Assembly (NCBI GenBank): GCA_017479485.1
Contig: JAFVCC010000114.1
Coordinates: 1,791-65,790, forward strand
Direction of reading: 5' to 3'
From: Bacilli bacterium
GTDB taxonomy: Bacteria > Bacillota_I > Bacilli_A > RFN20 > CAG-826
Length of the DNA: 64,000 nucleotides
Made by a program: the position numbers and the translations under genes. Below, in pieces: positions 15,592 to 30,169 of this stretch (positions within the stretch are counted from its first letter, which is position 1; every line of letters begins with the position of its first letter). The notes beneath the pieces were generated by a model, which worked only from the letters and a program-made list of their open reading frames with translations, searched no databases and had not been told where the DNA came from.

Positions 15592-16872
15592 ATGACCCCC
15601 GAACAAGCCGGATATTATTTAGGAATCAAATTCCAAGGTTCCGAAAAAAGCTATTACTTTTCCTGCCCAACGAACGATTTTGCCTTGGGTGATTTGGTGA
15701 TTGTCTTGACTTCCGCTGGCGTGGAAGCCGGCACCGTTTCGATGCTCCCCGCCCCGTTATCAAAATACAATTCCAGTCTCAAATTAAAGTCGATCCTACG
15801 CAAAGCCGATGAACGCGACATCCGCGACTATCAGCAGAACCTCGAAGACGCCAAGCGCGCCCTTGCCATAACCCGGAAAGAAATCGAGGCATTAAGCCTT
15901 TCCATGGATCTTATCGACGCTTTTTATACCATCGACGGATCCAAAGTCACCATCACCTACACCTCTACCGAAAAACGCGTGGATTTCCGCGAATTGCTCA
16001 AGGTCCTCGCACCGCAACTTGGCTGCCGAATTGAACTACGCCAAATCGCATCTCGCGATAAAGCAAAGATGATCGGTGGGCTTGGCATCTGTGGTCTTCC
16101 CTTATGTTGCTCTACCTTCTTAACACAGTTTGAAGGCATTTCCATTCAACGCGCGAAAAACCAGATGCTTACGCTGAATATTCCTAAGCTGTCGGGGCCA
16201 TGTGGAAAGCTCATCTGCTGCTTAACCTATGAAGACGACGCCTATACCGCAGCAAAGAAAGAGTTCCCGCGCATCGGATCGCCCGTCAAAATCGATGGCG
16301 AGCAATATACGGTTGACGGCTTTAACATCCTCTCGCGCACCGTCCGCGTGGTGAATGCGGGTCGCAGCGACTATAAAACCTTTAGCCTCGAGGACTATAA
16401 CGCGGTTTTAAACGGCACCTATGTCCACAAAGTTGAGATCATCAAATCCGATGATTCTTCGCTGCCTTCCTTCGGCATCGAACCTCATGCCGAGCGAAAA
16501 GAAAAAACCAACAATTCGGAAAATCAAAATTCCAAAAATAACGGCAAAACCCGCCCGAATCACCAAAAACCGCAGCAAAATAACCAAAATCGAAATCCGC
16601 AGCAAAAACCCCATCAAAATAACAATAGACCTCAAAAAGGTCCGCAAAACGGCCCTCAACAGCAAAAAGGACCGCAAAACGGGAATAACCAACCCCGTCG
16701 CCCACAGCAGGGGCACCGCCCGCAGCAAGGCGGAAATCGCCCGCAGAATAACAACCCGCAGCAGGGCCAAAGCCAGGGCAACCCCAATCCGAATCAGAAC
16801 CGCAACCGCCACCGTCACCACCATCGCGGCGGCAGCGGCAACCGCGGAGGCGGAGAAGGCGGCGCGCAATGA
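15592..16872 (+). CDS. ricT: PSP1-domain protein YaaT/RicT with a ~125-aa Q/N/P-rich, His/Gly-terminated low-complexity tail
   Basis: A PSP1 C-terminal domain with the paired Cys motifs GICGLPLCCSTF and GPCGKLICCLTYE, in the holB-yaaT-rsmI context. The tail runs from about nt 16489. Confidence 0.85.
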   Translation: MTPEQAGYYLGIKFQGSEKSYYFSCPTNDFALGDLVIVLTSAGVEAGTVSMLPAPLSKYNSSLKLKSILRKADERDIRDYQQNLEDAKRALAITRKEIEALSLSMDLIDAFYTIDGSKVTITYTSTEKRVDFRELLKVLAPQLGCRIELRQIASRDKAKMIGGLGICGLPLCCSTFLTQFEGISIQRAKNQMLTLNIPKLSGPCGKLICCLTYEDDAYTAAKKEFPRIGSPVKIDGEQYTVDGFNILSRTVRVVNAGRSDYKTFSLEDYNAVLNGTYVHKVEIIKSDDSSLPSFGIEPHAERKEKTNNSENQNSKNNGKTRPNHQKPQQNNQNRNPQQKPHQNNNRPQKGPQNGPQQQKGPQNGNNQPRRPQQGHRPQQGGNRPQNNNPQQGQSQGNPNPNQNRNRHRHHHRGGSGNRGGGEGGAQ

Positions 16873-17738
16873 TGCAGCGCGAATTAAACTTCGAAGGTCC
16901 TTCCCCAATCCTCTATCTCATCGCCACGCCGATTGGCAACCGCGGGGAAATGACGCCTCGGGCGTTAGAAGTGCTTAAAGACACCGATTTTATCGCCGCC
17001 GAAGATACCCGCAATTCTGGACAGCTCATGTCCTATTTTGGCATCGATAAGCCGTTTATCTCCTGCCACGAGCATAACGAGGAAGAGGCCGGAGCCAAAA
17101 TTGTCTCATTGCTAAAACAAGGCAAGAAGGTTTGCTTCATGTCGGATGCCGGATACCCCTGCCTCTCTGATCCTGGTCAGCGCCTTGTCGCGCGTTGCCT
17201 TGAGCAAGGGATAAAAGTCTCCGTTACTTCGGGGCCAAGCGCCGCCATAAACGCCCTAACGTGTTCTGGCTTAGATTCCACGCACTTCCATTTCGAGGGA
17301 TTCTTGCCCGCGAAAGATAGCGAGCGCGCCGCACGTCTTAATGAGCTTGCTTCCAACCCGGATACTCTCATCTTCTATGAATCGCCCCACCGCATCTTCA
17401 AGACATTGCTTTCGATGGCGGCAACCCTTGGAGACCGCAAGGCGGTAATCGCCCGCGAGCTCACCAAAGCTCACGAGGAATTCATCCGGGGGACCTTGTC
17501 CGAGCTCTGCCTATTGGACGAGAACTCACTTCGCGGCGAGATGGTTATCGTCGTCAGCGGCGCAGAAAAGAAGAAAGCCACCCTCTCGGACACGGAAATC
17601 GCCCTAGCGCTTCGCGATCAACTCGAATGGGGTAAATCCTCGAAGGAAGCCATTAAGGCCGTCTGCGAGCATAATAACCTGCCCAAAAACAAGGTTTACG
17701 ACATCTATTTAAAGAACTTCAAACGGAATGAAGATTAG
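16869..17738 (+). CDS. rsmI: 16S rRNA (cytidine1402-2'-O)-methyltransferase RsmI
   Basis: Tetrapyrrole-methylase fold motifs (LYLIATPIGN, SDAGYPCLSDPG, FYESPHR). 4-nt overlap with the yaaT stop. Confidence 0.9.
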   Translation: MMQRELNFEGPSPILYLIATPIGNRGEMTPRALEVLKDTDFIAAEDTRNSGQLMSYFGIDKPFISCHEHNEEEAGAKIVSLLKQGKKVCFMSDAGYPCLSDPGQRLVARCLEQGIKVSVTSGPSAAINALTCSGLDSTHFHFEGFLPAKDSERAARLNELASNPDTLIFYESPHRIFKTLLSMAATLGDRKAVIARELTKAHEEFIRGTLSELCLLDENSLRGEMVIVVSGAEKKKATLSDTEIALALRDQLEWGKSSKEAIKAVCEHNNLPKNKVYDIYLKNFKRNED

Positions 17739-20700
17739 GCGGCCTCATTGGCCGTCTCTTTTTTCTTGCGGGCGCAAAGGATGAAACACGTCGCCCCATA
17801 GCCGGCGAAGGAAAGGATTCCAAGCGCCCATAAGGCCACGCCAAGCCCACCATAAGGTGTGCTATAGCGAAGTTCGTAATGAATGGTTTGTCCTTTCCCT
17901 TCTTCGTCGACGGAATAAGGGGCGACAAAACCAACGAGTCCGCCGCTAAGCTTGAGCATTTGGCACGCCTTTTGTTTGCCATCAGGCATTCTCGCCGTCG
18001 CCTGCCAGCCCGCATCATAGCCAAGCTGGGTGATGACGATACGATCTTCCGTGAAGGAGGTATCGAAGGCAAAGCGATTGACGTCGGTAACAACGTTTTG
18101 TAGGGCATTGGCCTTGCGCGTCGCTTCTTCCGCTTCGATTTGGCTTCGCTCGGTCACGGTGAGATACATGTTTTGGGAATTTAAGATGGCGCTGCCACTT
18201 CCGCCGAAGCAAAGCACGACGTATTTCGCAAGCCCTTCGGCATATAAGCCAAACGTGCAGGAACCCCAATAGTACTTCTCGCCATCTAGGGCGTTCGAAA
18301 GCAGGTGGTGATCAAAGCTAAGGACCGTGTTGGATTCGATAACATTTCCGTCTTTGTCGACTTTATCACCAATAACATACACTCGCGGGACGCCAACGCC
18401 TTTGGTGTCAGAGAGAAAACGCATTTGCAGATAGCAACCGCGCGGATCCGTGTTGAGGTATTCACCCGTCGAGGAAGAGAAGGCCAATTTGCCATAATCC
18501 CGTTCCACGGTGATTGAGCCAACCACGTTCTCGTTCTTTTCGACGTAATGATTCAAAAAGTAGCCCGCCCCTTCGTCATAATAATCGGCGCGACCATCCG
18601 CGAAAAGCTGGTCGTACCATAGTTTGGTCTTACCGCTCTCGTCAGGATCCGTTTTGCTGCGGGTAAGATAATAATCCGCCCTAAGGCCGTGATTGAGGTA
18701 GCGGCGAGCTTTTTCCGTAAGAGAATAAAGCGTCGCATCATTAATCACCTGCGGAGTGGTCTCTTGCACGTGAATGGATTCGGGCAAAGTAACATCGTCA
18801 GGGATGATCGCGCCATGGAGTTCGGTATATTCCGCGAAGCTCAGTTGGTTATAAGAAGCCACACCAGAATAATTGCCGAAGAACTTGGAAGCATAGTTGG
18901 ACTCTTCATCGCGCCCTAAGCGGTAGATGAAGTCGGAGTCTTTCTCTACGGCAAAACCAAGGGAAGGCAAGGAATCTTCGCCCCTACGATAGACGCGATA
19001 ATAGTCGCGATTGGTAGATAACTTTGGGAGCTCTTTGCAGCCAAACGGAACATTGGCAGGAAGGAAAACAGGGGACCCATCAGCTTGTTTCCAATTAAAA
19101 TAGTTGTTTTCGACCACGTAATAACGCATGCCTAGAAGGGTGTCTGTCGCATAACGCTTATGCTTGTACAGTCCCGACCAGCTGGGATTATAGAATTTTG
19201 TCTCGTCATAGGTCGTCCCCGACCCGCCGACGTTCTTGATTTGATGCATTAACGCAAAGTCTTCCACGTCGAAGTTCATCAAGGAATGGAACTGGGAGGC
19301 GGCATTAAGGCCATACACGTTATGCGCGTAATTCTTCCCCCGCGCGCTATCCATGTAAGCACGGTAGAAAGACTTATCCTGCCGCTTGATGTTCTCCGCG
19401 ATTACCAAGGAGGTATCTCTCGTCCCTTGGCCTCCCAAAAAAGAATATTCATAAGACCAAAGACCGTTGAAAACGTAGGCGAGGTTACCCATGACCACCG
19501 CTTCTGCCGCGACGAGACCAAATAACGCGTATTTTGCCCAAGCTTTGCGATGCCCGATGCAAAGGATGACACCCTCGGTCACTACGAAGACGAGCTGATA
19601 ATAGAAATACCAGGCCGTGGAAACGTTGTTATAAACTTCCGAGGCCGTATGATAAGTGCTCTGCCAATAGGTTGTCCCGTTAACGTTATAGGCTGAGCTC
19701 GTAAATTCTTTGCCATGGAGAACATGTTCAGTGAAATAGAACGTAAAGATAGTGAGCCCTAGTGCAATAACGCTCGCGGCAAAGGGCACGAATTTTGGTT
19801 CGCTCGTGCGCTGATCAAATGCCCAGCAGCAGTAATAGACAATCAACGGGATAAGCAACAGGTACCAACGGCCATATCCGTTTCCGGTAAAGGCAAAGAA
19901 GAAGAAATAGGAGAAGTTGGTAAACACGGCGAAGAAGCAAAGCAGCACCGCGAAAAGGTGGGACCACCTTTGCAGGCGGATCGAGTTGATTAATGCAGCG
20001 AAGAACAAAATAACGCAGGGCGTATAGCAAAATAGCGACGCCGTCCACGCATCGTAGCCATTGCTCCGCGCCAAAGGCAGCTGCGTCCAACCTCCCGTAG
20101 GGAAGAAGAACGAGATTAGGCCCATCAGTTCGCGGCCGGGATTGTCTCCCACCTCTTCAAAGACCAGGGTAAAAGCACGCTTGGCATCGAGATTCTTAAT
20201 CGCTTCCTTAATCGCGCCGAAATAAGCCGAACCAATCGATGAGGAGCGGCCCGATAATAACGTTTCGCGGATGGAGGGCAGCAAGCTAAACGCCGAGACC
20301 ATAAGGCCGATGGCAAACCCAGCCACGCCAAGCACCATTACGGTGATGTTTTGTTTCGCATCGCGCGTTTTGACCGTGAGGAAGAAGCGCCACAAAGCAT
20401 AGATGACGCCGAAGATGCAGATTACCGGAACGAAGAAGAAGCAAGATAAGCCCAGTAACCCAACGCCAAGGGGGAGCAAGTCCATCTTCTGCTTCTGGAT
20501 GATCCGTTCAATACCCCACAGAATCAGCGGGAATACCGCCATAGGACTAAGGAAGACGGGGAAGCCTTCGAAGAACGTCGTAAATCCCGAGAAGGCAAAG
20601 ATTAAGCCGCCGATTCGCGCGGTCCATTCGCGGATACCCATAAAGCGCAGGTAGCCGCGCATCATCAACGCGCCAAAAGATAGTTTAGCGAAGGTTACCA

Positions 20701-21112
20701 AAGCATAGGTTTGGGGGATCCAAGCCCGGGGCAATAAATAACAGGCAAACATAAAGGGGTCGAGCAGGCCATAGTAAGAACCCGATCCGATCATGTCCGT
20801 ACCGATAAACGTCCCTGCGTCATAAAGCGGGAAGTGGCCCGTGGTAAAAAACGTATTCCACGCATCCCAATACGTATAGGCGAAGGGGATATACTGCCAG
20901 GTATAGTCCCAGTTGAGCAATTGGGTTCCCGAGTTGGTGAAGAACGGGAAACCCGCCCATAGCAAAGCGAGAATAAACAGGAAAAGCCCATAATAAAACA
21001 AGCTATTCCAGTGCGTAAGCCACGGCAGATTTCGTGAAAACCAATTGGGTTTTGCAGACTTTTTCTGACGAACTTCGCTTAATGTAAGGTTTTTTTCGCC
21101 TTCTAAGGCCAC
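17735..21112 (-). CDS. YfhO-family polytopic membrane protein (putative GT-C-type glycosyltransferase), oversized at 1125 aa
   Basis: The N-terminal half has many TM segments and YfhO-like sequence (WQYIPFAYTYW, GSGSYYGLLDPFMF). A soluble region of over 500 aa follows, and the protein ends in a C-terminal TM anchor. GTG start 3 nt after the upstream stop, with AAGGGA as RBS. Confidence 0.6.
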   Translation of the reverse strand: MALEGEKNLTLSEVRQKKSAKPNWFSRNLPWLTHWNSLFYYGLFLFILALLWAGFPFFTNSGTQLLNWDYTWQYIPFAYTYWDAWNTFFTTGHFPLYDAGTFIGTDMIGSGSYYGLLDPFMFACYLLPRAWIPQTYALVTFAKLSFGALMMRGYLRFMGIREWTARIGGLIFAFSGFTTFFEGFPVFLSPMAVFPLILWGIERIIQKQKMDLLPLGVGLLGLSCFFFVPVICIFGVIYALWRFFLTVKTRDAKQNITVMVLGVAGFAIGLMVSAFSLLPSIRETLLSGRSSSIGSAYFGAIKEAIKNLDAKRAFTLVFEEVGDNPGRELMGLISFFFPTGGWTQLPLARSNGYDAWTASLFCYTPCVILFFAALINSIRLQRWSHLFAVLLCFFAVFTNFSYFFFFAFTGNGYGRWYLLLIPLIVYYCCWAFDQRTSEPKFVPFAASVIALGLTIFTFYFTEHVLHGKEFTSSAYNVNGTTYWQSTYHTASEVYNNVSTAWYFYYQLVFVVTEGVILCIGHRKAWAKYALFGLVAAEAVVMGNLAYVFNGLWSYEYSFLGGQGTRDTSLVIAENIKRQDKSFYRAYMDSARGKNYAHNVYGLNAASQFHSLMNFDVEDFALMHQIKNVGGSGTTYDETKFYNPSWSGLYKHKRYATDTLLGMRYYVVENNYFNWKQADGSPVFLPANVPFGCKELPKLSTNRDYYRVYRRGEDSLPSLGFAVEKDSDFIYRLGRDEESNYASKFFGNYSGVASYNQLSFAEYTELHGAIIPDDVTLPESIHVQETTPQVINDATLYSLTEKARRYLNHGLRADYYLTRSKTDPDESGKTKLWYDQLFADGRADYYDEGAGYFLNHYVEKNENVVGSITVERDYGKLAFSSSTGEYLNTDPRGCYLQMRFLSDTKGVGVPRVYVIGDKVDKDGNVIESNTVLSFDHHLLSNALDGEKYYWGSCTFGLYAEGLAKYVVLCFGGSGSAILNSQNMYLTVTERSQIEAEEATRKANALQNVVTDVNRFAFDTSFTEDRIVITQLGYDAGWQATARMPDGKQKACQMLKLSGGLVGFVAPYSVDEEGKGQTIHYELRYSTPYGGLGVALWALGILSFAGYGATCFILCARKKKETANEAA

Positions 21113-21115
21113 GTG

Positions 21116-21457
21116 TTATTTCCCTTCTTTCGGCGCAGCGGCATCACGTAGTTCGCCAATGCCCACTACGTCAGCAACAGGTAAGGAAAACGCAATGCCT
21201 AAGCCCTTGGTCGACATGCCGGCAGCCTCGTTCACGTACTCGAGGACTTTGTCGCGGATCGGCTTAGGGACCAAAATCATGACGATGTCTTTTTCGGGAG
21301 TCACCGTGACGCCAAAGAATTCTTCATTGTCGTGATTACCCGTGCCGCGGCCCGAGAAAATCGTGCCGCCAGTAGCACCTGCGCGCTTGGCCGCGCTCAT
21401 GACGAGGTCGGAATAGCCGTGGTTAACGACGCAAAGGACACATTCGAAGTTATTCAT
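21116..21457 (-). CDS. PII-like (GlnB-fold) small signalling protein, copy 2 (113 aa from ATG 21457)
   Basis: MNNFECVLCVVNHGYSDLVMSAAKRAGATGGTIFSGRGTGNHD...IVMILVPK...KGLGIAFSLPVADVVGI shows a beta-alpha-beta-beta-alpha-beta pattern with T-loop-like and B-loop-like segments. The start overlaps the upstream stop by 8 nt. The track's start at 21502 is probably an over-extension. Confidence 0.55.
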   Translation of the reverse strand: MNNFECVLCVVNHGYSDLVMSAAKRAGATGGTIFSGRGTGNHDNEEFFGVTVTPEKDIVMILVPKPIRDKVLEYVNEAAGMSTKGLGIAFSLPVADVVGIGELRDAAAPKEGK

Positions 21458-21863
21458 CTTTCTTCTTTCCTTTCTTCCCCGCCGGGGCAATAGGTTTTTC
21501 AAATAAGCGCGTATTGGAGAGCATCTTATAGATGGAGACGCCCGCCACTGCGTCTAGAGGCGTCGAGAAGGCGATCCCTTTGGCAACCTTAGACACATTG
21601 AAGCGTTGCGAGAGTTTCATTTTATAGGCGGGCCAGCGGTCGGCACGCAAGATGGAGAAAACGATCTCTTTCTTGACGGAATTCACGATTTCTACCGGTG
21701 CCGTTCCTTTGCCGCGAAGGACAAGGCATAAAGAGCATTCCTGTTCGCGGTTTAAATTCACAATCGCGTCGGATTGGCCCTCGCCGACAATCGTCGTCAC
21801 GAATAACAACGGGCGCAGACGGTGGGTTTCTTCGTAGGGGACAAAGTTTTTATTCTCGCTCAT
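21450..21863 (-). CDS. PII-like (GlnB-fold) small protein, copy 1 (137 aa) with a Lys-rich C-terminal tail
   Basis: LLFVTTIVGEGQSDAIVNLNREQECSLCLVLRGKGTAP...EIVFSILRAD...AKGIAFSTPLDAVAGV has the same fold pattern and shares the KG(L)GIAFSxP motif with copy 2. 4-nt overlap with the DUF1538 gene. Confidence 0.5.
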   Translation of the reverse strand: MSENKNFVPYEETHRLRPLLFVTTIVGEGQSDAIVNLNREQECSLCLVLRGKGTAPVEIVNSVKKEIVFSILRADRWPAYKMKLSQRFNVSKVAKGIAFSTPLDAVAGVSIYKMLSNTRLFEKPIAPAGKKGKKKDE

Positions 21864-23458
21864 AAGCCCTCCTCCATGAATTGCGTGACGTCAAAATGAA
21901 TAATCTGTTCGTCGTTTTCCTCGATGATACGCTTGCGGGCATGAGCCAACGCGATCTGCGACTGAACCTTGGATTGGAAGCCGAGGGCCTGCACCACAAT
22001 AATCGGCATCATTGCGACAACGGCAACGAGGCCAAATCCAAAAGAATAGACGTCGATGCCGCAGGTCGAGGCGAAGCCGATACAAAAGGGCAAAACAAAC
22101 GTAGAAGTCATCGGACCAGAGGCAACGCCGCCCGAGTCGAATGCCATTGCGGTATAGATTTTCGGCACCGCAAAGGAAAGGATAAAGGCCAGGATATAGC
22201 CGGGGATAATGTAATATTCCAGCCCGAACTGGAAGTGACAGCGGAGCACAGAAAGGGCTACGGCAACGCCGTTAGCGGCTGCCAAAACCGTCAAAACCAA
22301 GCCTTTTTTGATGCGGCCATCCGAAACTTGTTCCATTTGGGAGACCAATACATGAACCGCAGGCTCAGCCAGCACGCCAAAGATGCCGAATAAGGCACCG
22401 ATGCCAATGGCCACATAATGCATGGCTTCGGATGACCCAAACATGTGACCGACGGTTTGGGCAATGGGTAAGAAGCCCCATTCGACCGCAGAGAGGAACA
22501 GAACCAAGCCGACATAAGTGATGACCATGCCAATGATGATGCGTACAAGTTTCATTCCAGGGACGCGGATGAAGATCAATTCATAGACAATGAAGAAAAG
22601 CAAAATGGGGCCAACAGACAATGCGACCGACTGCATCGAGGAAGTGCTATCGTGGAGCAAAGACTCCCAAATATTGGAGAGCGATGCGTCCTCAATGGGA
22701 TATTCCGCCGGAAGGCCTCTTCCAGTGCCTTTTAAAACAAGCGAAATAATGACGACGGCCAAGATGGGGCCAATGGAACAAAGGGCCGTCAAGCCGAAAG
22801 AATCTTCAGAGTTTTTACCACCGCGGTTAGCCGCCATACCAAGGCCAAAGCCAAGCAAGAACGGGACGGTAACGGGGCCGGTAGTGACGCCGCCAGAATC
22901 GAAGCAGATGGGCAAAAAGCGAGGGTCGATGAAGTAAAGAAGCGCAAAGCAAAGACCATAAAAGGCGAGGAACATCATGTTCAAACTTTGATGCAGCGTC
23001 GTACGGATGACGCCGACGACAAGGAATAGCCCCACCCCAACGCCAATCGACCACACAATGATCTGCGAGTTGATACCAACTTGGCGCGAAAGGACGCTTA
23101 AATCAGGCTCCGCAATCGTTACGAGAACGCCGATGATAAACGTCATGGCAATGACGAAGAAGAACTTATTCTTTCGCACCAGAGATCCACCGATAATACG
23201 GCCGATTTCGGTCATGGATTGCTCGGTACCGAGATTGAATAACGCCATGCCGACAACAATCATCGCCACAGCAACGGCGAACGAAACCATTTGATCGTTA
23301 GAAAGGAAATAAGCTTGGCCTGAGGCATCCGTGAAGAAGTCCATCGGAAGAGCAAAACGAGTGACGAGGAAGATAATTAAAATAACGACGGCAATCGGGG
23401 CCGTGGAAATCAGGGATTCGGTGAATTTGGCAAGCCATTCTTTCCCAGAAGGGATCAT
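21860..23458 (-). CDS. DUF1538-type integral membrane protein, internally duplicated (two homologous halves in one 532-aa chain); putative transporter
   Basis: Each half carries an AEP(D/A)xxVL motif (IAEPDLSVLSRQV / LAEPAVHVLVSQM) and an FDSGGV(T/A)(T/S)GP(V/M)T motif (CFDSGGVTTGPVTVPF / AFDSGGVASGPMTSTF). Highly hydrophobic throughout. The family name is from memory of Pfam DUF1538. Confidence 0.6.
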   Translation of the reverse strand: MIPSGKEWLAKFTESLISTAPIAVVILIIFLVTRFALPMDFFTDASGQAYFLSNDQMVSFAVAVAMIVVGMALFNLGTEQSMTEIGRIIGGSLVRKNKFFFVIAMTFIIGVLVTIAEPDLSVLSRQVGINSQIIVWSIGVGVGLFLVVGVIRTTLHQSLNMMFLAFYGLCFALLYFIDPRFLPICFDSGGVTTGPVTVPFLLGFGLGMAANRGGKNSEDSFGLTALCSIGPILAVVIISLVLKGTGRGLPAEYPIEDASLSNIWESLLHDSTSSMQSVALSVGPILLFFIVYELIFIRVPGMKLVRIIIGMVITYVGLVLFLSAVEWGFLPIAQTVGHMFGSSEAMHYVAIGIGALFGIFGVLAEPAVHVLVSQMEQVSDGRIKKGLVLTVLAAANGVAVALSVLRCHFQFGLEYYIIPGYILAFILSFAVPKIYTAMAFDSGGVASGPMTSTFVLPFCIGFASTCGIDVYSFGFGLVAVVAMMPIIVVQALGFQSKVQSQIALAHARKRIIEENDEQIIHFDVTQFMEEGL

Positions 23459-24513
23459 TTTCTTCCTCCTTTCTTTGGTACACGCGTTTTGGCGCGAGGC
23501 TTCGTAAGTTTAGCGCCATCTGCTTCATCGCGCATGTTCCTGCGCGGTTTGCGCGCAGTTTCGGCCTCCTCGGCGCGGCGCTGGGCGTGCGTGACAAAGA
23601 AGAGAGATTTGAAGCATTCGGGCATCGGCGTGACAAAGTCATACCGCTTGCCGGAAATGGGGTTTGTGAAAGTCAGCTGATAGGCATGGAGGCCTAGGCG
23701 CTTTAACGGGTCGGCGGGTTCGCCGTATTTATCGTCGCCGATCACGTGGTGACCGCGGGATCCTAGTTGGACGCGGATCTGGTTCTTACGCCCGGAGGAA
23801 ATATGGACATCCAGCAACGAATAAGGCTCTTTATAGGAGATGACCTTATAGGCCGTCGTGGACAGTTTCCCCTCTTTTTTATTTTTGGTGACAAAAACCA
23901 AATGAAGGTCGTTTTGCATCAAATAATCCTGCAAAACCGCCTCATCTTTTTCCATTTTTCCTTCTACGATGGCGTAATAGGCGCGGGTTTCCACGATTTC
24001 TTGCCAGTGATTTTGTAACGCCTCACGGACCTCGAATTTCTTGGCGAAGACCAAAACGCCAGAGGTATCTTCGTCAAGACGGTGGACGACATATACGCGT
24101 GCTTTGGGATTCATCGCAGCAACATAATCGGAAACGAGGCGATAGGCAGTGCGTCCCTTCTCTCGCTCCGTCGCGACCGAAAGAAGGCCCGAGGGCTTGT
24201 TGATGACGATGATGTCTTCGTCTTCATAGATGATGGGCAAATCTTTGCGTTCGTGCTTGGCGATACGGTTCTTCGATACGGTTACCACATCTTCGGGAAC
24301 CAGCGGGTAATTGTATTGCGAGACCGGCACCCCGCCGACGGCCACTTGGTGGTGCGTCAAAAGAGACTTGATGGTCTTTCGCGGCGTATCGGGCATCTTA
24401 AAGATTAGAAATTCCATCAACGTCGTTTCGCGATATACCTGAAACTCCTTGATGGAGCGAGGGTCGACGTGTCCCTTATTAGGGGCGGTGCGTTTTTTGT
24501 CGTTTTTATTCAT
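23455..24513 (-). CDS. RluA-family pseudouridine synthase with an S4-like N-terminal domain and a Lys/Arg-rich C-terminal tail
   Basis: Catalytic motif HRLDEDTSGVLVFAK and GRKNQIRVQL. 352 aa. Overlaps both neighbouring genes (8 nt and 4 nt). Confidence 0.85.
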   Translation of the reverse strand: MNKNDKKRTAPNKGHVDPRSIKEFQVYRETTLMEFLIFKMPDTPRKTIKSLLTHHQVAVGGVPVSQYNYPLVPEDVVTVSKNRIAKHERKDLPIIYEDEDIIVINKPSGLLSVATEREKGRTAYRLVSDYVAAMNPKARVYVVHRLDEDTSGVLVFAKKFEVREALQNHWQEIVETRAYYAIVEGKMEKDEAVLQDYLMQNDLHLVFVTKNKKEGKLSTTAYKVISYKEPYSLLDVHISSGRKNQIRVQLGSRGHHVIGDDKYGEPADPLKRLGLHAYQLTFTNPISGKRYDFVTPMPECFKSLFFVTHAQRRAEEAETARKPRRNMRDEADGAKLTKPRAKTRVPKKGGRK

Positions 24514-25390
24514 GATTAGCCCCCAAAAACTTCAGCATGGCGGGCAGCTCCCGTTCCATGATTTTGCGGCCTTGGTCATATAAGGCGAGCAATTTATCGG
24601 TGTCTTTTTCAATGCGGCCTACTTCCGGTTTGACGTCAGGTCGAACAATAAAGGCCTCGCCCGACTCAAACAAGCGCTCCATCTCATCCATGTCGGCGTT
24701 ATATTGGTCGTTCATTTTGTAATAGGCCTCGTGGAATTTCTTGCAGCGGTGGTAAAGCATCTTGGCGAAGATTCGCTTCCCTTTTCCCGTCGGCGTTTTC
24801 TTGCGGAACCCCTTCTCGCGAGTCTGCACGATGACGATTTTCGTAAAGCCGTCTTCGAGTGGCTTTTGGAATGGCGTCGCACAGGTGACGCCGCCATCGA
24901 GGTAACGTTTTCCTTCCACCCGAACCGGGCGGGAGATGATGGGCAACGAGGCCGAAGAAGCCAAGGCTTTATAGAATTCTTTGCACTCGCCTTTTTTGAA
25001 ATAGTGCGTTTGCCCGTCTTCTAAACCAACCGAAGCGGCAACGAGCTCCACGGGAGAGCTGTTATATTGGCCTTGGTTAAAAGGCTGCTTGGTTTTTGGA
25101 ACGGTATGGAAAAGATAGGTGAAATTAAAAGCCGTCCCGCGGAAAAAGATGTTCCGTATCGAAACAAACTTGGGGTCATGCATGAGTTCCGTCGTAACAT
25201 AACGGCTCCGTCCAATATCTCCAGAGAGGTAATTCACAGCGTTCAGCGCCCCGGCGGAGGTGCCGATGACATAAGGGAAAACCACTTGATGCTCCATGAG
25301 AACATCAAGGACTCCGGCGGTAAATGCGCCACGAGATCCTCCCCCTTGAAGTACGAGGGCTGCTTTTTCGGAAACAAAGGATTCGCTCAT
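24506..25390 (-). CDS. Patatin-like phospholipase
   Basis: GGGSRGAF oxyanion motif, GTSAGA nucleophile motif and a downstream DGG. 294 aa. Confidence 0.85.
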   Translation of the reverse strand: MSESFVSEKAALVLQGGGSRGAFTAGVLDVLMEHQVVFPYVIGTSAGALNAVNYLSGDIGRSRYVTTELMHDPKFVSIRNIFFRGTAFNFTYLFHTVPKTKQPFNQGQYNSSPVELVAASVGLEDGQTHYFKKGECKEFYKALASSASLPIISRPVRVEGKRYLDGGVTCATPFQKPLEDGFTKIVIVQTREKGFRKKTPTGKGKRIFAKMLYHRCKKFHEAYYKMNDQYNADMDEMERLFESGEAFIVRPDVKPEVGRIEKDTDKLLALYDQGRKIMERELPAMLKFLGANHE

Positions 25391-25466
25391 TACTTTGTAA
25401 TGGTATCTTTACCGAGTGAAAACCTCAAAGACTTTCCGCTTAAAGCGGATTTTTCTAAGGATGTGT

Positions 25467-26372
25467 CTAGTTATTCGAATGCTTTTGGAAGAAAGAAATG
25501 ATGGCCTCGTTGACCCGAACGGAATCGCTTAGACCAATGTCCGTAACGTTATGAACGTGGCCCACTTTCTGCGACTTGTTGTCCACAAAGACAAATTCCA
25601 GAGGCTTTCCATCCTTTTCCCAATCTTCTTTGATGCTGCGGCTCTCTTCGATCAGGAAGTCATTTCTGCAGGTCGAAACAAACAGAGGTTGGGTGAGAGC
25701 GGAACGATGAACGCGCGGGTCTATGAGGGCCACTTTTGCCTCATCCTGGTAAATGGAACCGAACATGACCGCCTTAGCTTTGTCGTTCATAAGCGGAGTA
25801 TGAACGGAGCGATGAAAGTCATAAACGGGGCAGATTGCAGCGATGGAAGAAAACGAAATTCCATTCAAATGAACGCCGATTTGCGAGGAAATTTCCAAAT
25901 TTTGCGCACATTCTGCTAAAAATAAGGCAAAGTGTCCGCCTGCCGAATCACCCGTTAAATGGAAGCGAGAAGAGTCCAAGCCAAGTTCCTCCGCATGGCT
26001 TTGTAGATAGGCTAGTTCTGCGGCGAGGGTTTGGATTTGACTGATGCAGTCACGCGATCCATCGTTGGGTTCGTAATCGAGCAAGACGACGTCGAAGCCT
26101 CGGTCTAAGAAAACCGAAGCGAAGCCAAAATTGTTTTTACGGTCGCCATAGATATAGGCTCCGCCATGGATATCGATGACGACGTTACCGTTTCTCTTGC
26201 TCTCATCCGCATAGAAAACGTCGAACTGATGAAAGAAGTTCTGATCGCCAAGCGCGTCGATGTCGAGCTGATGACGGTAGGCATCGATGCTCGGCCACGT
26301 TTTTCTTCGCTTATGGTCCGCTTTCCCCATCCATTTCACGATGAGCTTCATCGTTGTGGTGCCGATTTTCAT
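25467..26372 (-). CDS. Alpha/beta-hydrolase esterase/lipase (hormone-sensitive-lipase-like family IV)
   Basis: HGGAYIYGD (HGG box) and GDSAGG nucleophile motif. 301 aa. ATGA overlap with the upstream HAD gene. Confidence 0.75.
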   Translation of the reverse strand: MKIGTTTMKLIVKWMGKADHKRRKTWPSIDAYRHQLDIDALGDQNFFHQFDVFYADESKRNGNVVIDIHGGAYIYGDRKNNFGFASVFLDRGFDVVLLDYEPNDGSRDCISQIQTLAAELAYLQSHAEELGLDSSRFHLTGDSAGGHFALFLAECAQNLEISSQIGVHLNGISFSSIAAICPVYDFHRSVHTPLMNDKAKAVMFGSIYQDEAKVALIDPRVHRSALTQPLFVSTCRNDFLIEESRSIKEDWEKDGKPLEFVFVDNKSQKVGHVHNVTDIGLSDSVRVNEAIISFFQKHSNN

Positions 26373-27157
26373 GGAAGCACCTCATAATGGCAAAGCGCTT
26401 GGTAAAGTCCGTCGTCTCCGATGCGCGGGCAAACGTAGTCCGCCTCTTCCTTGGCTTTGTCATGACCGTTACCCATGCAGACGAAGGTGGAGGCCTCGCC
26501 CATGGTGATGTCTTGTAGGTCGTCGCCGAAAGAGAGAACCTCATCCCTCTTCCAACCAAATTCTTTCATGATGATGGAGATACCGTCGCCCTTCTTATGC
26601 TCCTCCTGAGCAATATCCACGCCATAGGGATGAAACCGGTAATAGATGAGGTCGGGAAGGACTTGTTTGAATTGCTCGTCGAACTCCTCGGGGCAAAAGA
26701 GCAATACCCCCGTCACCTTCTCGCCGCGATAAGGGTGAATCGGCGGGACGACATCAGAGTAGGTCCCATGGTAGTTATCCAAGAAGGTATTTCCAGGGGC
26801 GGTAAGGAAGCGCGTTTTCGCCGTGACGAACTCCATCGTCAAATGATTCTTCTTGGCGATATGGGTCAAGGTGAGCAAAGTTTGGTGCTCGATGGTCAGT
26901 AGGCGAAGCGTACGATTGCCGAGGGCGACATAGCCGCCACAATTGGCGACGATGCCATTCCATTTGATGCCGAGATCGAGCACGCCAAAGTCTTTAATAG
27001 ACCCATAGGGACGGGCGGTGCAAAGAAATACTTTGATACCCTTACGCTGAAGAGATTTGATGGCCTTGATTCCGGAGGGAACAAAACGTCGCGCCTCCCA
27101 ATCGTAAAGCGTGTTATCGATGTCAAAGAAGGCGGCTTTAATCACGGTTCCCTCCAT
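26369..27157 (-). CDS. Cof-type HAD-IIB family hydrolase (sugar-phosphate phosphatase-like)
   Basis: FFDIDNTLYDW (DxD motif), CTARPY and FGDDLQDITM. The start could be GTG 27145, which has GGAGGG upstream. Confidence 0.8.
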   Translation of the reverse strand: MEGTVIKAAFFDIDNTLYDWEARRFVPSGIKAIKSLQRKGIKVFLCTARPYGSIKDFGVLDLGIKWNGIVANCGGYVALGNRTLRLLTIEHQTLLTLTHIAKKNHLTMEFVTAKTRFLTAPGNTFLDNYHGTYSDVVPPIHPYRGEKVTGVLLFCPEEFDEQFKQVLPDLIYYRFHPYGVDIAQEEHKKGDGISIIMKEFGWKRDEVLSFGDDLQDITMGEASTFVCMGNGHDKAKEEADYVCPRIGDDGLYQALCHYEVLP

Positions 27158-28880
27158 CGAACTTCAGCAACGCATTCGCGTCCTTAATTTTGTTCTTGTC
27201 CACCTTTACGATTTTGCGGTCATAAGTGGTGAGGCCGTTGGTCTCTTCTTCGACGTCACTAAGCTGCGTCCAAACCATGCCCGACAACCCCTCCTCAATA
27301 AGCGGCAAAATTTCATTTTTCAAACATTTAACGATGGATTTGCGGAGTTTTTCTTGAGAGGAGAAATATTTATACGGCGTTCTCTTCGTATAGTCGCAAT
27401 GGCCCTCGACAACATGGGAATAGGCTCCAAACTCCGATAAGAGCATGATGCGCTTGCCGTCGTTTTTCATTCGCGCTTTGCGGAAATAGATGTGACGCGA
27501 ATAGAAGTCGCCGTTCTTTTGGTCGAACCAGCCGGAATTGGCATCGATGAGGCGAGTCGGATCTAGTTCCCGTAACGTTTCCGTGAGACGGACGGAATCA
27601 AATTGCCCCCACCCTTCGTTGAACAAGGTCCACGCGGCGATGGAGGGGACGTTATAAAGATGGTCCACTACTTCGGGCAACTCTTTTTCAAAGAAATCGC
27701 GGCTCTTCTTGTTCGCACGTCCAAATAAGGGGAAACGCGTCGAATCGTCAAAATGGAACGTGAAGAAGGGGCAAAGCCAGAGGAGCAGCTGCTTCGGGTA
27801 TTTGCCACCGCAGACGAAATCCTGCATGACAATAAGACCGAGCCGGTCGCAATGGTAATACCACCGCATGCACTCGATCTTGATGTGCTTGCGGGCCATG
27901 TTAAAGCCCATCTCTTTCAATAATTTAATGTCGTTGGATAGGGCAGCATCGGATGGGGCGGTTAACCCGCCGTCTGCAAAATAGCCTTGATCGAGCACGC
28001 CTTTAAGGAAATAAGGTTTGTTGTTTAATGCAAACACGCGATGTCCATTATGGACGACGGAGGAGAATTTTCTCATCGCGAAATAACTGGTGACCTCATC
28101 CGAATTCACCCGGACGCGCAGATCATAGAGGTTTGGCGTTTCGGGAGTCCATTCGCGGAAGCACGGCGCGACATCAAGCACCACAACACCGTTTTCATCA
28201 AAGCTGCCCGAGGAAACGAGGCGGCTACCAAAGTAGGCCTGCACGAGAGAAGACTCCGCGCGACCTTCAAACTTCAGCTGAATCTTCACTTTCTTTTCAT
28301 CGAATAATGGAGTGATACGGATGGACTGAATGACCTGTTTCGGAACCGATTCCATCCATACCGTGCCCCAGATTCCGGAGGTTGGCGTATACCAAATGCC
28401 GCCTCGCTTTAGACGCTGCTTACCACGAGGATAGACGTCGGAATCGGTATCGTCGTAGACATCGACAAGCAATTCGTTTTTGCCACGCTTTAGCTCCAGT
28501 AGGTCCATGGCAAAGGGCAGGTACCCGCCTTCATGGTGGCCGATTTTGACCCCATTAAGGAACACATCACACACCTGGTCGACCGCTTCGAAATGAAGCA
28601 AAATGCGACCTTTATCAAAATCCTCGGGCACCTCAAAGAAGCGGCGATAATGCATGACGTGTTTCGCCGTGACTTCTTTTTGAATCCCCGAGAGTTCGCT
28701 TTCGACCGCAAAGGGCACCAAAATGCGATAAGGGAAGACGCTGTGATTCTGCGGATCTTCGTCCAAAGAAAAGTCCCACATTCCGTTCAAGCACAAGTAA
28801 GAATCCCGTTGGAACTGTGGGGTGGGATACTCGCTGCGGGGGCAATCCTTATCGATTTTTCTGCCTTCGCTCGTCAACAT
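27138..28880 (-). CDS. Glycoside hydrolase family 2 protein (beta-galactosidase/glucuronidase-like), 580 aa
   Basis: GH2-like sugar-binding and TIM-barrel sequence (NGMWDFSL, RKHIKIECMRWYYHCDRLGLIVMQDF, WTLFNEGWGQ). The true start is ATG 28880 (MLTSEGRK...). The track ORF extends to 29102 through the divergent promoter region and into the opposite-strand gene. Confidence 0.75.
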   Translation of the reverse strand: MLTSEGRKIDKDCPRSEYPTPQFQRDSYLCLNGMWDFSLDEDPQNHSVFPYRILVPFAVESELSGIQKEVTAKHVMHYRRFFEVPEDFDKGRILLHFEAVDQVCDVFLNGVKIGHHEGGYLPFAMDLLELKRGKNELLVDVYDDTDSDVYPRGKQRLKRGGIWYTPTSGIWGTVWMESVPKQVIQSIRITPLFDEKKVKIQLKFEGRAESSLVQAYFGSRLVSSGSFDENGVVVLDVAPCFREWTPETPNLYDLRVRVNSDEVTSYFAMRKFSSVVHNGHRVFALNNKPYFLKGVLDQGYFADGGLTAPSDAALSNDIKLLKEMGFNMARKHIKIECMRWYYHCDRLGLIVMQDFVCGGKYPKQLLLWLCPFFTFHFDDSTRFPLFGRANKKSRDFFEKELPEVVDHLYNVPSIAAWTLFNEGWGQFDSVRLTETLRELDPTRLIDANSGWFDQKNGDFYSRHIYFRKARMKNDGKRIMLLSEFGAYSHVVEGHCDYTKRTPYKYFSSQEKLRKSIVKCLKNEILPLIEEGLSGMVWTQLSDVEEETNGLTTYDRKIVKVDKNKIKDANALLKFDGGNRD

Positions 28881-28981
28881 ATTATTTATTCTACCAGCCT
28901 GAAAGAAAAACGAGGGTTTTCTTAAAAGAAAAATATGGATATGGGAATTCCGTCTAACTAAGATAAGGCGAGGCCAAGAAA

Positions 28982-30169
28982 ATGGAACTATTCGAATTAC
29001 AACGAAAAATTGAAGAAAAAGGCGCGGACGCATGGATCCTCGTAGACTACGAAAATCATAACCCCGCCCTTGTTCGCTTCCTGGGAAAAAGGATGCTAAC
29101 AAGGAAAATATTCCTCGTCGTCCCCGCGAGAGGAAAACCGTATTTAATCACCCACAGCATCGATACAGTATATCTGTCCGACAAAGAGATTACCGACCGC
29201 TTTGACTTAAAGGTATATAAGACGTGGAAGCAGATGCTCGAACTCGAAAAAGAGTGCTTCTCCTCCTACCGGAAAGTATTCATGGACATCTCCGAGAACG
29301 GTCTTTTGCCACGGGTCTCTCTCGCGGATTATGGCTCAGTCGAATTCATCTCCTCTTTAGGCATCGAAATTGAATCCAGTGGGGATTTGCTGCAATTACA
29401 AACCTGCGTTATGGATGAAAAATCCTTGCAATCTCAAGTAAAAGCCTGCAAAACCTGCTTAAAAATCAAAGATGAAGCTTTTTCATTTATCGCGAAGGAA
29501 ATCCGTCATAAAGGACAAACTTCCGAGCTTGATGTCCAGCAATTTATCGCCCGACGTTTCACCGAGGAAAACATGTTCTTCGATGAGGCGCCTCTAGTCG
29601 CGATTGGACCTAACGCCTCTAACCCCCACTACACCCCGACCGAATCCGCCTATTCTCCCATCAAGGAAGGCGACCTTGTTCTCATCGATATGTGGGCCAA
29701 ATACAAAGAACCAGGCTCCGTCTATGCAGACATCACCTGGATGGGCTATGTGGGAAAGAAAGTCCCGCAGAAATATGTTGAGCGCTTCGCTATCGTTAAG
29801 GCGGCTCGCGATGGAGCGATTGAGTTCTTAAAACGTGAGCTGAAGCACCGCGACGTGCAGGCTTATGAAGTCGATGATGTCGCGCGCAAAATCATCACCG
29901 ATGCCGGGTATGGGGAATGGTTCCTTCACCGCCTCGGGCACAGCATCTATGATGATGACTCCCCCCATGGCCCTGGCGCGAACCTTGATAACTACGAGTC
30001 CCATGACACCCGATATTTGCTTGATGGCACATCGTTCTCTGATGAGCCGGGCATTTATACGCCAGAATTTGGCATTCGCACCGAAACCGACCTCCACATA
30101 CAAGGGAAGGAACTCCTCGTCGTGGGCGGGCTACAAGACGCGATTATCCCCATTTTGAATTTAGATTAA
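28982..30169 (+). CDS. M24-family metallopeptidase (Xaa-Pro aminopeptidase-like)
   Basis: Pita-bread-fold metal ligand context (LIDMWA ... DITWMGY, HRLGHSIY, SDEPGIY). 395 aa. Confidence 0.8.
   Translation: MELFELQRKIEEKGADAWILVDYENHNPALVRFLGKRMLTRKIFLVVPARGKPYLITHSIDTVYLSDKEITDRFDLKVYKTWKQMLELEKECFSSYRKVFMDISENGLLPRVSLADYGSVEFISSLGIEIESSGDLLQLQTCVMDEKSLQSQVKACKTCLKIKDEAFSFIAKEIRHKGQTSELDVQQFIARRFTEENMFFDEAPLVAIGPNASNPHYTPTESAYSPIKEGDLVLIDMWAKYKEPGSVYADITWMGYVGKKVPQKYVERFAIVKAARDGAIEFLKRELKHRDVQAYEVDDVARKIITDAGYGEWFLHRLGHSIYDDDSPHGPGANLDNYESHDTRYLLDGTSFSDEPGIYTPEFGIRTETDLHIQGKELLVVGGLQDAIIPILNLD

Follow-up and report, generated by a model that had tools for sequence, protein, structure and literature searches.

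A DUF1538 membrane protein and two PII-like paralogues form a fixed gene cassette of gut and rumen bacteria that probably encodes a ligand-gated ion transporter

What is the role of a DUF1538 membrane protein whose gene is directly followed by the genes of two small PII-like proteins? This question is raised by positions 21,116 to 23,458 of a 64,000-nucleotide stretch of contig JAFVCC010000114.1 (positions 1,791 to 65,790 of the forward strand; assembly GCA_017479485.1, Bacilli bacterium), the whole of which is called the window hereafter. The two small proteins are designated A1 and A2 in the order of their genes (Table 1). PII-fold proteins encoded beside transporters usually gate them in response to a small-molecule ligand, as GlnK does for AmtB and SbtB for SbtA. 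The analysis reported here establishes that the trio is a fixed, self-contained cassette present in hundreds of gut and rumen bacteria; undescribed within the searchable literature, it probably forms a ligand-gated ion transporter.

The association of the three genes was first assessed from its recurrence in two samples. The genome set, obtained by scanning species-representative genomes, consisted of 80 loci with the fused transporter out of at least 598 matching stretches, its hosts being Bacilli, Clostridia and Bacteroidales metagenome-assembled genomes (MAGs) as well as Mobilisporobacter senegalensis. The metagenome set added 120 further loci found by a motif scan. All open reading frames (ORFs) of these loci were searched with hidden Markov models (HMMs) derived from alignments of A1, A2 and the transporter. 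The co-occurrence of DUF1538 and PII genes, which a preliminary description of this DNA had put forward for checking, proved nearly universal, one or more PII-like genes lying directly 3' of the DUF1538 gene or genes in 162 of 163 evaluable loci of both sets together. In the genome set, a PII-like gene was found directly downstream in 76/76 evaluable loci, as separate A1 and A2 genes (68), as tandem fusions (7) or cut by a contig end (1). In the metagenome set this was the case for 86 of 87 evaluable loci, with 63 tandem A1-A2 genes, 10 separate A1 and A2 pairs, 12 single A2-like genes and one tandem accompanied by an extra A2-like ORF (L162); the lone exception is probably an artefact of ORF calling. 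The PII-like genes shared the strand of the transporter in every locus scored and, where two PII-like domains existed, their order was A1 then A2 without exception. Overall, the fused transporter was matched in at least 598 species genomes and accounts for more than 8000 protein clusters.

The two small proteins are also frequently joined. Single A1-A2 chains of about 220-280 amino acids (aa) predominated in the metagenome sample (63 loci). When 1.84 billion representative proteins were searched with a profile, 1569 A1-family matches were obtained (480 at E <= 1e-10), many of them with two matched stretches. Besides, one protein of 654 aa (P0310) carries two DUF1538 domains and an A1-type domain fused after the C-terminal tail. 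The view that the paralogues and the DUF1538 protein constitute one module is thus borne out by the invariant order, the frequent A1-A2 fusion and this single transporter-A1 fusion. Separately, a chain of 346 aa (P0295, from a 4-member cluster in which one member occurs on 8 contigs) contains three PII-like domains, perhaps a complete PII pseudo-trimer made as one polypeptide. PII-like genes also follow split DUF1538 pairs of UmpAB-like architecture, as one gene in each of three loci (L111, L132, L138) and as a tandem in a fourth (L115, 2682-4853). Both domains of the latter tandem retain the GGT and RGTG motifs, which suggests that the degenerate A1 type arose later by specialisation. Upstream ORF extensions of about 300-1090 codons in L029 (2725-7515) and L163 (4274-6751) have no Pfam match; they are probably over-calls and were set aside.

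In the window itself, the junctions were read directly. The RluA-type gene and the DUF1538 gene overlap by 4 nucleotides (nt) in the sequence ATGA, the DUF1538 and A1 genes do the same with GGAGGAGGG just before, the A1 and A2 genes overlap by 8 nt in ATGAATAA, and the A2 gene is separated by 3 nt from the gene of a YfhO homologue (TAA-cac-GTG). The 4-nt and 8-nt start/stop overlaps previously described for the trio were therefore correct. Shine-Dalgarno-like AGGAGG/GGAGG sequences lie ahead of the starts of the DUF1538 and A1 genes. Independent public gene calling on an identical contig yielded the same products of 532, 137, 113 and 1125 aa, and the closest named relatives came from 'Bacilli bacterium' and 'Candidatus Enteromonas' MAGs.

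The membrane protein was then analyzed. It matched Pfam family PF07556 with 364.9 bits (cut-off 22.6, E = 1.3e-109) through two full-length domain matches, and its two halves are homologous (BLASTP E = 2e-14, 26% identity over 187 residues). As reported earlier, both halves carry the motifs AEP(D/A)xxVL and FDSGGV(T/A)(T/S)GP(V/M)T, the former as AEPDLSVL (residues 116-123) and AEPAVHVL (residues 364-371), the latter as FDSGGVTTGPVT (residues 186-197) and FDSGGVASGPMT (residues 440-451). Hydropathy gave seven hydrophobic segments in each repeat. With 14 transmembrane (TM) segments and both termini in the cytoplasm, the mean number of lysine and arginine residues was 18.8 in the predicted cytoplasmic loops versus 3.7 outside, in agreement for 73 of 73 homologues. 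Because equivalent loops of the two repeats are opposite in charge, the repeats are expected to be inverted with respect to each other, as is usual among secondary transporters. The protein is consequently described here as a predicted 14-TM, 7+7 inverted-repeat secondary transporter. This topology bears on the earlier proposal that one paralogue serves each repeat: since inverted repeats present different faces to the cytoplasm, such a symmetric picture is weakened.

The AlphaFold2 model of the transporter, built from 73 homologues, was all-helical, with a predicted local distance difference test score (pLDDT) of 85.7 and a predicted template-modelling score (pTM) of 0.85. Its helices break at the conserved motifs, namely AEPD (116-119), GP (194-195), AEPA (364-367) and SG (447-448), the breaks of repeat 1 falling at residues 116-117 and 194-196. 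Among the 73 homologues, E117, D119, D187 and R152 are invariant in repeat 1, and so are E365, D441 and R406, the counterparts of repeat 1 residues, in repeat 2. No relative was found in the PDB by sequence, with either the single protein or a profile as query, nor by fold, the best query-normalised template-modelling score (TM-score) in Foldseek being 0.20. The cytoplasmic C-terminal tail, a candidate docking element for the PII-like proteins, has a pLDDT of merely 54-61 in the monomer model. Its residues R508, R510, D516, Q518 and H521 are conserved among transporter homologues, and 143 of 181 related transporters have a motif [IVL][IV]x[FYLM], a pattern picked after the data were seen, within their final 14 residues, versus 5.8 in shuffled tails.

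The two small proteins had both been assigned a PII fold, and matches of the trio to PF07556 and PF00543 had been anticipated. This expectation held for the membrane protein and for A2, which matched PF00543 (P-II) with 34.2 bits (cut-off 25); A1 is invisible to Pfam (no match at E <= 0.01) and has no sequence match in the PDB. The A2 family profile matched solved GlnK/GlnB chains at E = 7e-6 and weaker, archaeal GlnK being the closest. A2 retains GGT (residues 30-32), RGTGN at the base of the T-loop, and a PEK lysine aligned with K58 of PII. For A1, the assignment was recovered by other means. When the A1 (33 homologues) and A2 family profiles were aligned with hhalign, they matched with 97% probability (E = 1.1e-10). 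According to its AlphaFold2 model (pLDDT 73), A1 adopts a beta-alpha-beta-beta-alpha-beta arrangement followed by a C-terminal helix, and the best PDB matches of this model in Foldseek were all PII-like (SbtB, CPII, TTHA0516, PH1503 and PotN), with TM-scores of 0.6-0.75 relative to the targets; the SbtA-SbtB complex (7egk) and PotN (7o4x) were also matched. On this profile-profile and fold evidence, A1 is a true but diverged PII-like paralogue.

The loops of both proteins depart from those of canonical PII. The B-loops quoted in the preliminary description (AKGIAFSTP in A1, KGLGIAFSLP in A2) and the short T-loops are present. The B-loop region reads SKVAKGIAF then VAGVS in A1, which lacks the canonical B-loop and C-terminal arginine signature, and STKGLGIAF then VVGIG in A2, where the canonical signature, which we take to be [ST]-x(3)-G-[DY]-G-[KR]-[IV]-[FW] (PROSITE PS00638), is likewise absent. 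In B-loops of the A2 type, GDGKIF is replaced by G(L/M)GIAF; aligned to GlnK, A2 has leucine for D88, isoleucine for K90, glycine for R101 and no equivalent of R103. The T-loops of A1 (GKGTAPVEIVNS) and A2 (GRGTGNHDNEEFFG) are both shorter than the canonical length of about 19 residues, without a Y-[KR]-G-[AS]-[AE]-Y-type site. Neither protein matches the cyclic di-AMP (c-di-AMP) receptor family PstA/DarA, PF00543 being the sole Pfam family reported at E <= 0.01.

As had been stated, the paralogues have diverged from each other, their identity being 21%. In 70 A1/A2 pairs, GG[ST], which occupies the position of G27-T29 of PII in the nucleotide cleft, was found in 69/70 A2-type versus 2/70 A1-type proteins. 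Conversely, a C-terminal helix motif Y-x-[FML]-L-[ST]-[ND] was found in 67/70 A1-type versus 0/70 A2-type proteins (SIYKMLSN in A1 of the window). A2 has kept the cleft motif, whereas A1 has lost it and acquired a C-terminal helix of its own, a pattern of sub-functionalisation.

Taken together, it is reasonable to regard the cassette as a PII-like-controlled transporter, widespread and experimentally tractable. The mechanism that we favor, with moderate confidence, is that the paralogues form a 1:1 PII-like heteromer gating an ion-coupled DUF1538 transporter, with A2 as the sensor and A1 as the adaptor. The analysis itself yields the gene structure, homologies, fold, topology, strict synteny and fusions, while the physical complex, its stoichiometry in vivo, the direction of regulation, the substrate and the ligand are the parts of it that we infer. 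Each inverted repeat would provide broken helices bearing carboxylates (E117 and D187; E365 and D441) and an arginine (R152; R406). A1 and A2 would be produced in equal amounts through translational coupling and would act as a 1:1 hetero-complex at the cytoplasmic face of the transporter. Hetero-trimers, suggested earlier, are argued against in their 2:1 NifI1,2-type form by the frequent A1-A2 single chains, which point to a 1:1 ratio. A2 would likely sense a small molecule via its retained glycine-rich cleft motifs, candidate ligands being an adenine nucleotide or a second messenger, e.g., ATP/ADP or c-di-AMP. A1 would likely be the adaptor touching the transporter, perhaps via its conserved C-terminal tail. 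Ligand-dependent docking would then open or block transport, as GlnK does on AmtB and SbtB on SbtA.

The transport activity would most likely be monovalent cation/proton exchange, as for a distant split relative. The module had been called uncharacterised, but its family is not entirely so: UmpAB of Halomonas zhaodongensis, a split DUF1538 pair, has a measured Na+(Li+,K+)/H+ antiport activity (PMC5484666). The window protein is only distantly related to this pair (129 and 107 bits, see below). The proposed antiport is based on the UmpAB activity, on the intramembrane carboxylates and on a machine-learning study in which DUF1538 ranked among the features of pH adaptation, tying the family to growth pH (PMC13255231). 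A more specific version, in which A1 and A2 form an obligate 1:1 PII-like assembly, a ligand-blind A1 sitting on the conserved tail of an inverted-repeat ion transporter without structural precedent while A2 reads a nucleotide or second messenger and gates transport, is proposed tentatively and is rather doubtful as a whole. If true, NifI1,2 would no longer be the only kind of heteromeric PII complex, and such complexes would for the first time include one on a membrane transporter.

Several points weigh against a gated cation/proton antiporter. The window protein scored 129.1 bits with NCBIfam model NF041627 (cut-off 490) and 106.9 bits with NF041628 (cut-off 500), far under these equivalog cut-offs for UmpA/UmpB, so that the substrate proposal is weak. 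Moreover, UmpAB came from a complementation screen that reportedly also assigned antiport to several unrelated families; the physiological substrate could therefore differ. A2 is devoid of the phosphate-binding residues K90, R101 and R103, and canonical sensing of ATP and 2-oxoglutarate is consequently unlikely. UmpAB was active in Escherichia coli without any PII-like partner (PMC5484666), hence at least this subfamily can transport without PII-like proteins. The fusion of A1 to the transporter is represented by one 90% cluster, seen on 2 contigs, and is either genuine or due to a read-through error. Besides, the locus samples are skewed to gut and rumen Bacillota and contain near-duplicates; therefore, the counts show consistency rather than independent events. 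Finally, binding, gating, substrate and ligand of the cassette are all deduced from sequences and predicted structures.

The linkage of the genes could have another meaning, namely that the transporter is inactive without the PII-like pair, which would be its obligatory subunit in a structural or activating capacity, in the style of the KtrA/TrkA ring on KtrB/TrkH, rather than a conditional plug like GlnK or SbtB. The co-occurrence close to 100%, the fixed order, the translational coupling, the A1-A2 fusions and the single transporter-A1 fusion are all in line with such a subunit, and A1 is without the ligand-cleft motif, as a structural adaptor would be. However, amtB and glnK are also tightly linked and yet GlnK is a conditional inhibitor, and the split UmpAB pair is active alone in E. 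coli (PMC5484666). An obligatory subunit is considered unlikely.

A further alternative retains the gating and changes the cargo: the substrate would be bicarbonate, ammonium or an organic nitrogen or carbon compound instead of Na+, K+ or H+, and the PII-like proteins would report carbon/nitrogen or energy status. The characterised transporter-linked PII and PII-like proteins all control nitrogen or carbon uptake, with SbtA-SbtB, DAB-CPII, AmtB-GlnK and PotABCD-PotN as precedents. SbtB and CPII are the closest structural matches of A1, archaeal GlnK is closest to the A2 profile, and the window protein is just a distant kin of UmpAB. Nevertheless, Foldseek E-values of about 1e-4 cannot tell PII-like subfamilies apart, and the sole experimental datum for DUF1538 is a cation/proton antiport. 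Nor are nitrogen or carbon assimilation genes conserved nearby, and no riboswitch or other Rfam element was found upstream in 26 long-leader loci. Such a substrate is regarded as quite improbable. That the membrane protein is mainly a sensor or anchor sequestering the PII-like pair at the membrane, the true regulatory targets being other cytoplasmic proteins, as AmtB-GlnK sequestration controls DraG, would agree with the several targets that PII proteins usually have and with conserved A1/A2 surface loops left without other explanation here, but it is very improbable given the absence of a third conserved partner gene across 200 related loci and the invariant intramembrane carboxylates and broken helices, which point to real transport.

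The features of the cassette and its immediate neighbors are collected in Table 1.

Table 1. Genes and protein elements of the DUF1538/PII-like cassette and adjoining genes, in window positions.
Feature	Positions	Strand	Details
Patatin-like gene	24506-25390	minus	294 aa
RluA-type pseudouridine synthase gene	23455-24513	minus	352 aa
DUF1538 membrane-protein gene	21860-23458	minus	532 aa
Small protein 1 (A1) gene	21450-21863	minus	137 aa
Small protein 2 (A2) gene	21116-21457	minus	113 aa, counted from its ATG
YfhO homologue gene	17735-21112	minus	1125 aa, GTG start
DUF1538 repeat 1, predicted N-in to C-out	22724-23458	minus	residues ~1-245; AEPD 23102-23113, FDSGGVTTGPVT 22868-22903; from alignment of the halves
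DUF1538 repeat 2, predicted N-out to C-in	21926-22672	minus	residues ~263-511; AEPA 22358-22369, FDSGGVASGPMT 22106-22141
DUF1538 C-terminal tail, predicted cytoplasmic	21863-21985	minus	residues 492-532, conserved ...EENDEQIIHF...; candidate PII-like docking element
A1 T-loop, short	21678-21713	minus	GKGTAPVEIVNS
A1 B-loop	21558-21584	minus	AKGIAFSTP
A1 conserved C-terminal helix	about 21501-21557	minus	VAGVSIYKMLSNTRLF
A2 T-loop	21311-21352	minus	GRGTGNHDNEEFFG
A2 B-loop	21179-21208	minus	KGLGIAFSLP

The genes surrounding the cassette were considered separately. An unbroken chain running from patatin through RluA, DUF1538 and the two PII genes to YfhO had been proposed, with probable co-expression of the module with an envelope-glycosylation enzyme. 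The gene order and the 3-nt gap before YfhO are as described. However, the chain is specific to the lineage, patatin, RluA and YfhO genes being neighbors in only 6, 10 and 7 of the 80 genome-set loci, respectively. These three genes were accordingly rejected as parts of the module, and co-expression with an envelope-glycosylation enzyme is not one of its properties, YfhO lying beside 7/80 loci. Clustering of all flanking ORFs revealed no further gene family conserved around the cassette. In the window, the cassette belongs to a same-strand run (17735-29102) comprising GH2, HAD, BD-FAE esterase, patatin, RluA, DUF1538, two PII-like and YfhO genes, which overlap or abut save for one 76-nt gap at 25391-25466. 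This run of functionally unrelated genes looks like the packing of a compact genome and not like a functional operon. The YfhO homologue is unusually long with its 1125 aa, the Pfam YfhO model spanning residues 46-330 only, and it shows a faint likeness to the streptococcal glycosyltransferases PgfM1/PgfM2. Its gene is convergent with that of an RsmI-like TP_methylase (16869-17738, plus strand), the two sharing 4 nt at their 3' ends, and positions 17737-17757 hold a terminator-like hairpin with a T-run.

Leader sequences were also inspected. A scan at the Rfam gathering threshold of the 26 loci with long upstream gaps gave nothing upstream on the DUF1538 strand, and an all-against-all comparison of the upstream 400 nt revealed likeness solely between near-identical loci. 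A tandem glycine riboswitch (L015, 5633-5807) and a T-box leader (L058, 5425-5660) lie beside the cassette on the opposite strand; these leaders serve the divergent upstream genes and not DUF1538.

Few signal transducers are as widespread as PII proteins, of whose transporter partners only a handful are understood, namely AmtB, SbtA and, via PotN or PII, ABC systems. The present cassette joins a transporter fold without solved structure to a sub-functionalised PII-like pair, and its hosts include numerous Bacillota and Bacteroidales MAGs of the human gut and the rumen. It therefore offers a clean system for studying how a three-fold PII scaffold fits a pseudo-two-fold inverted-repeat partner, and for asking whether DUF1538 proteins are cation/proton antiporters and under what signal. 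In the searchable literature, outside which most papers of subscription journals fall, no link between DUF1538 and PII was found, DUF1538 being represented there by the UmpAB work; two other matches turned out to be mere entries in reference lists. A paper on a 'PII-like' Borrelia protein (BB0017) was rejected as such a link since it concerns the unrelated YitT/DUF2179 family, and so was PDB entry 9p1x as a DUF1538-associated PII, a 105-aa single-PII partner from one locus (L094) giving no match. What is new here is the predicted inverted-repeat topology, the lack of a solved relative, the invariant cassette, the fusions and the apparent sub-functionalisation of A1 and A2.

The cassette can finally be compared with known systems. 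With UmpAB it shares PF07556 and a construction from two cooperating homologous 7-TM units, and the window protein weakly matches both NCBIfam models. Instead of two separate polypeptides forming a heterodimer, however, it is a single chain, and PII (or P-II) is named nowhere in the UmpAB paper, whose cloned fragment ended at umpB (PMC5484666). Like PstA/DarA and PotN, A1 and A2 are small PII-fold signalling proteins of Bacillota, and PotN (7o4x), a structural match, also has its gene in a transporter operon; in loops and partner, however, the cassette proteins are different. NifI1 and NifI2 provide the precedent of two diverged PII paralogues in tandem, as in the cassette pair with its low identity and overlapping genes. 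Nitrogenase (NifDK) is inhibited by NifI1,2 in the form of a 2:1 heterotrimer, whose subunits are both canonical PF00543 members. By contrast, the target in the cassette would be a membrane transporter, no nif genes occur in the window neighborhood, A1 has lost the cleft motif and escapes Pfam, and A1-A2 single chains imply a 1:1 ratio.

The closest parallels are SbtA-SbtB and AmtB-GlnK, in which a PII-fold gene likewise adjoins and is co-transcribed with a transporter gene, and a short loop of the T-loop type is available for insertion. The differences are nonetheless substantial: the cassette transporter is unrelated in family and fold, without a PDB match; two diverged PII-like proteins or a tandem fusion replace one homotrimer-forming protein; and the B-loop reads G-x-G-I-A-F for GDGKIF, equivalents of R101 and R103 being absent. 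With respect to SbtB in particular, the cassette proteins are without the C-terminal CGPxGC loop and adjoin DUF1538 instead of SbtA, the likeness being structural only. Hence, the cassette resembles SbtA-SbtB and AmtB-GlnK in its working and is a member of neither.

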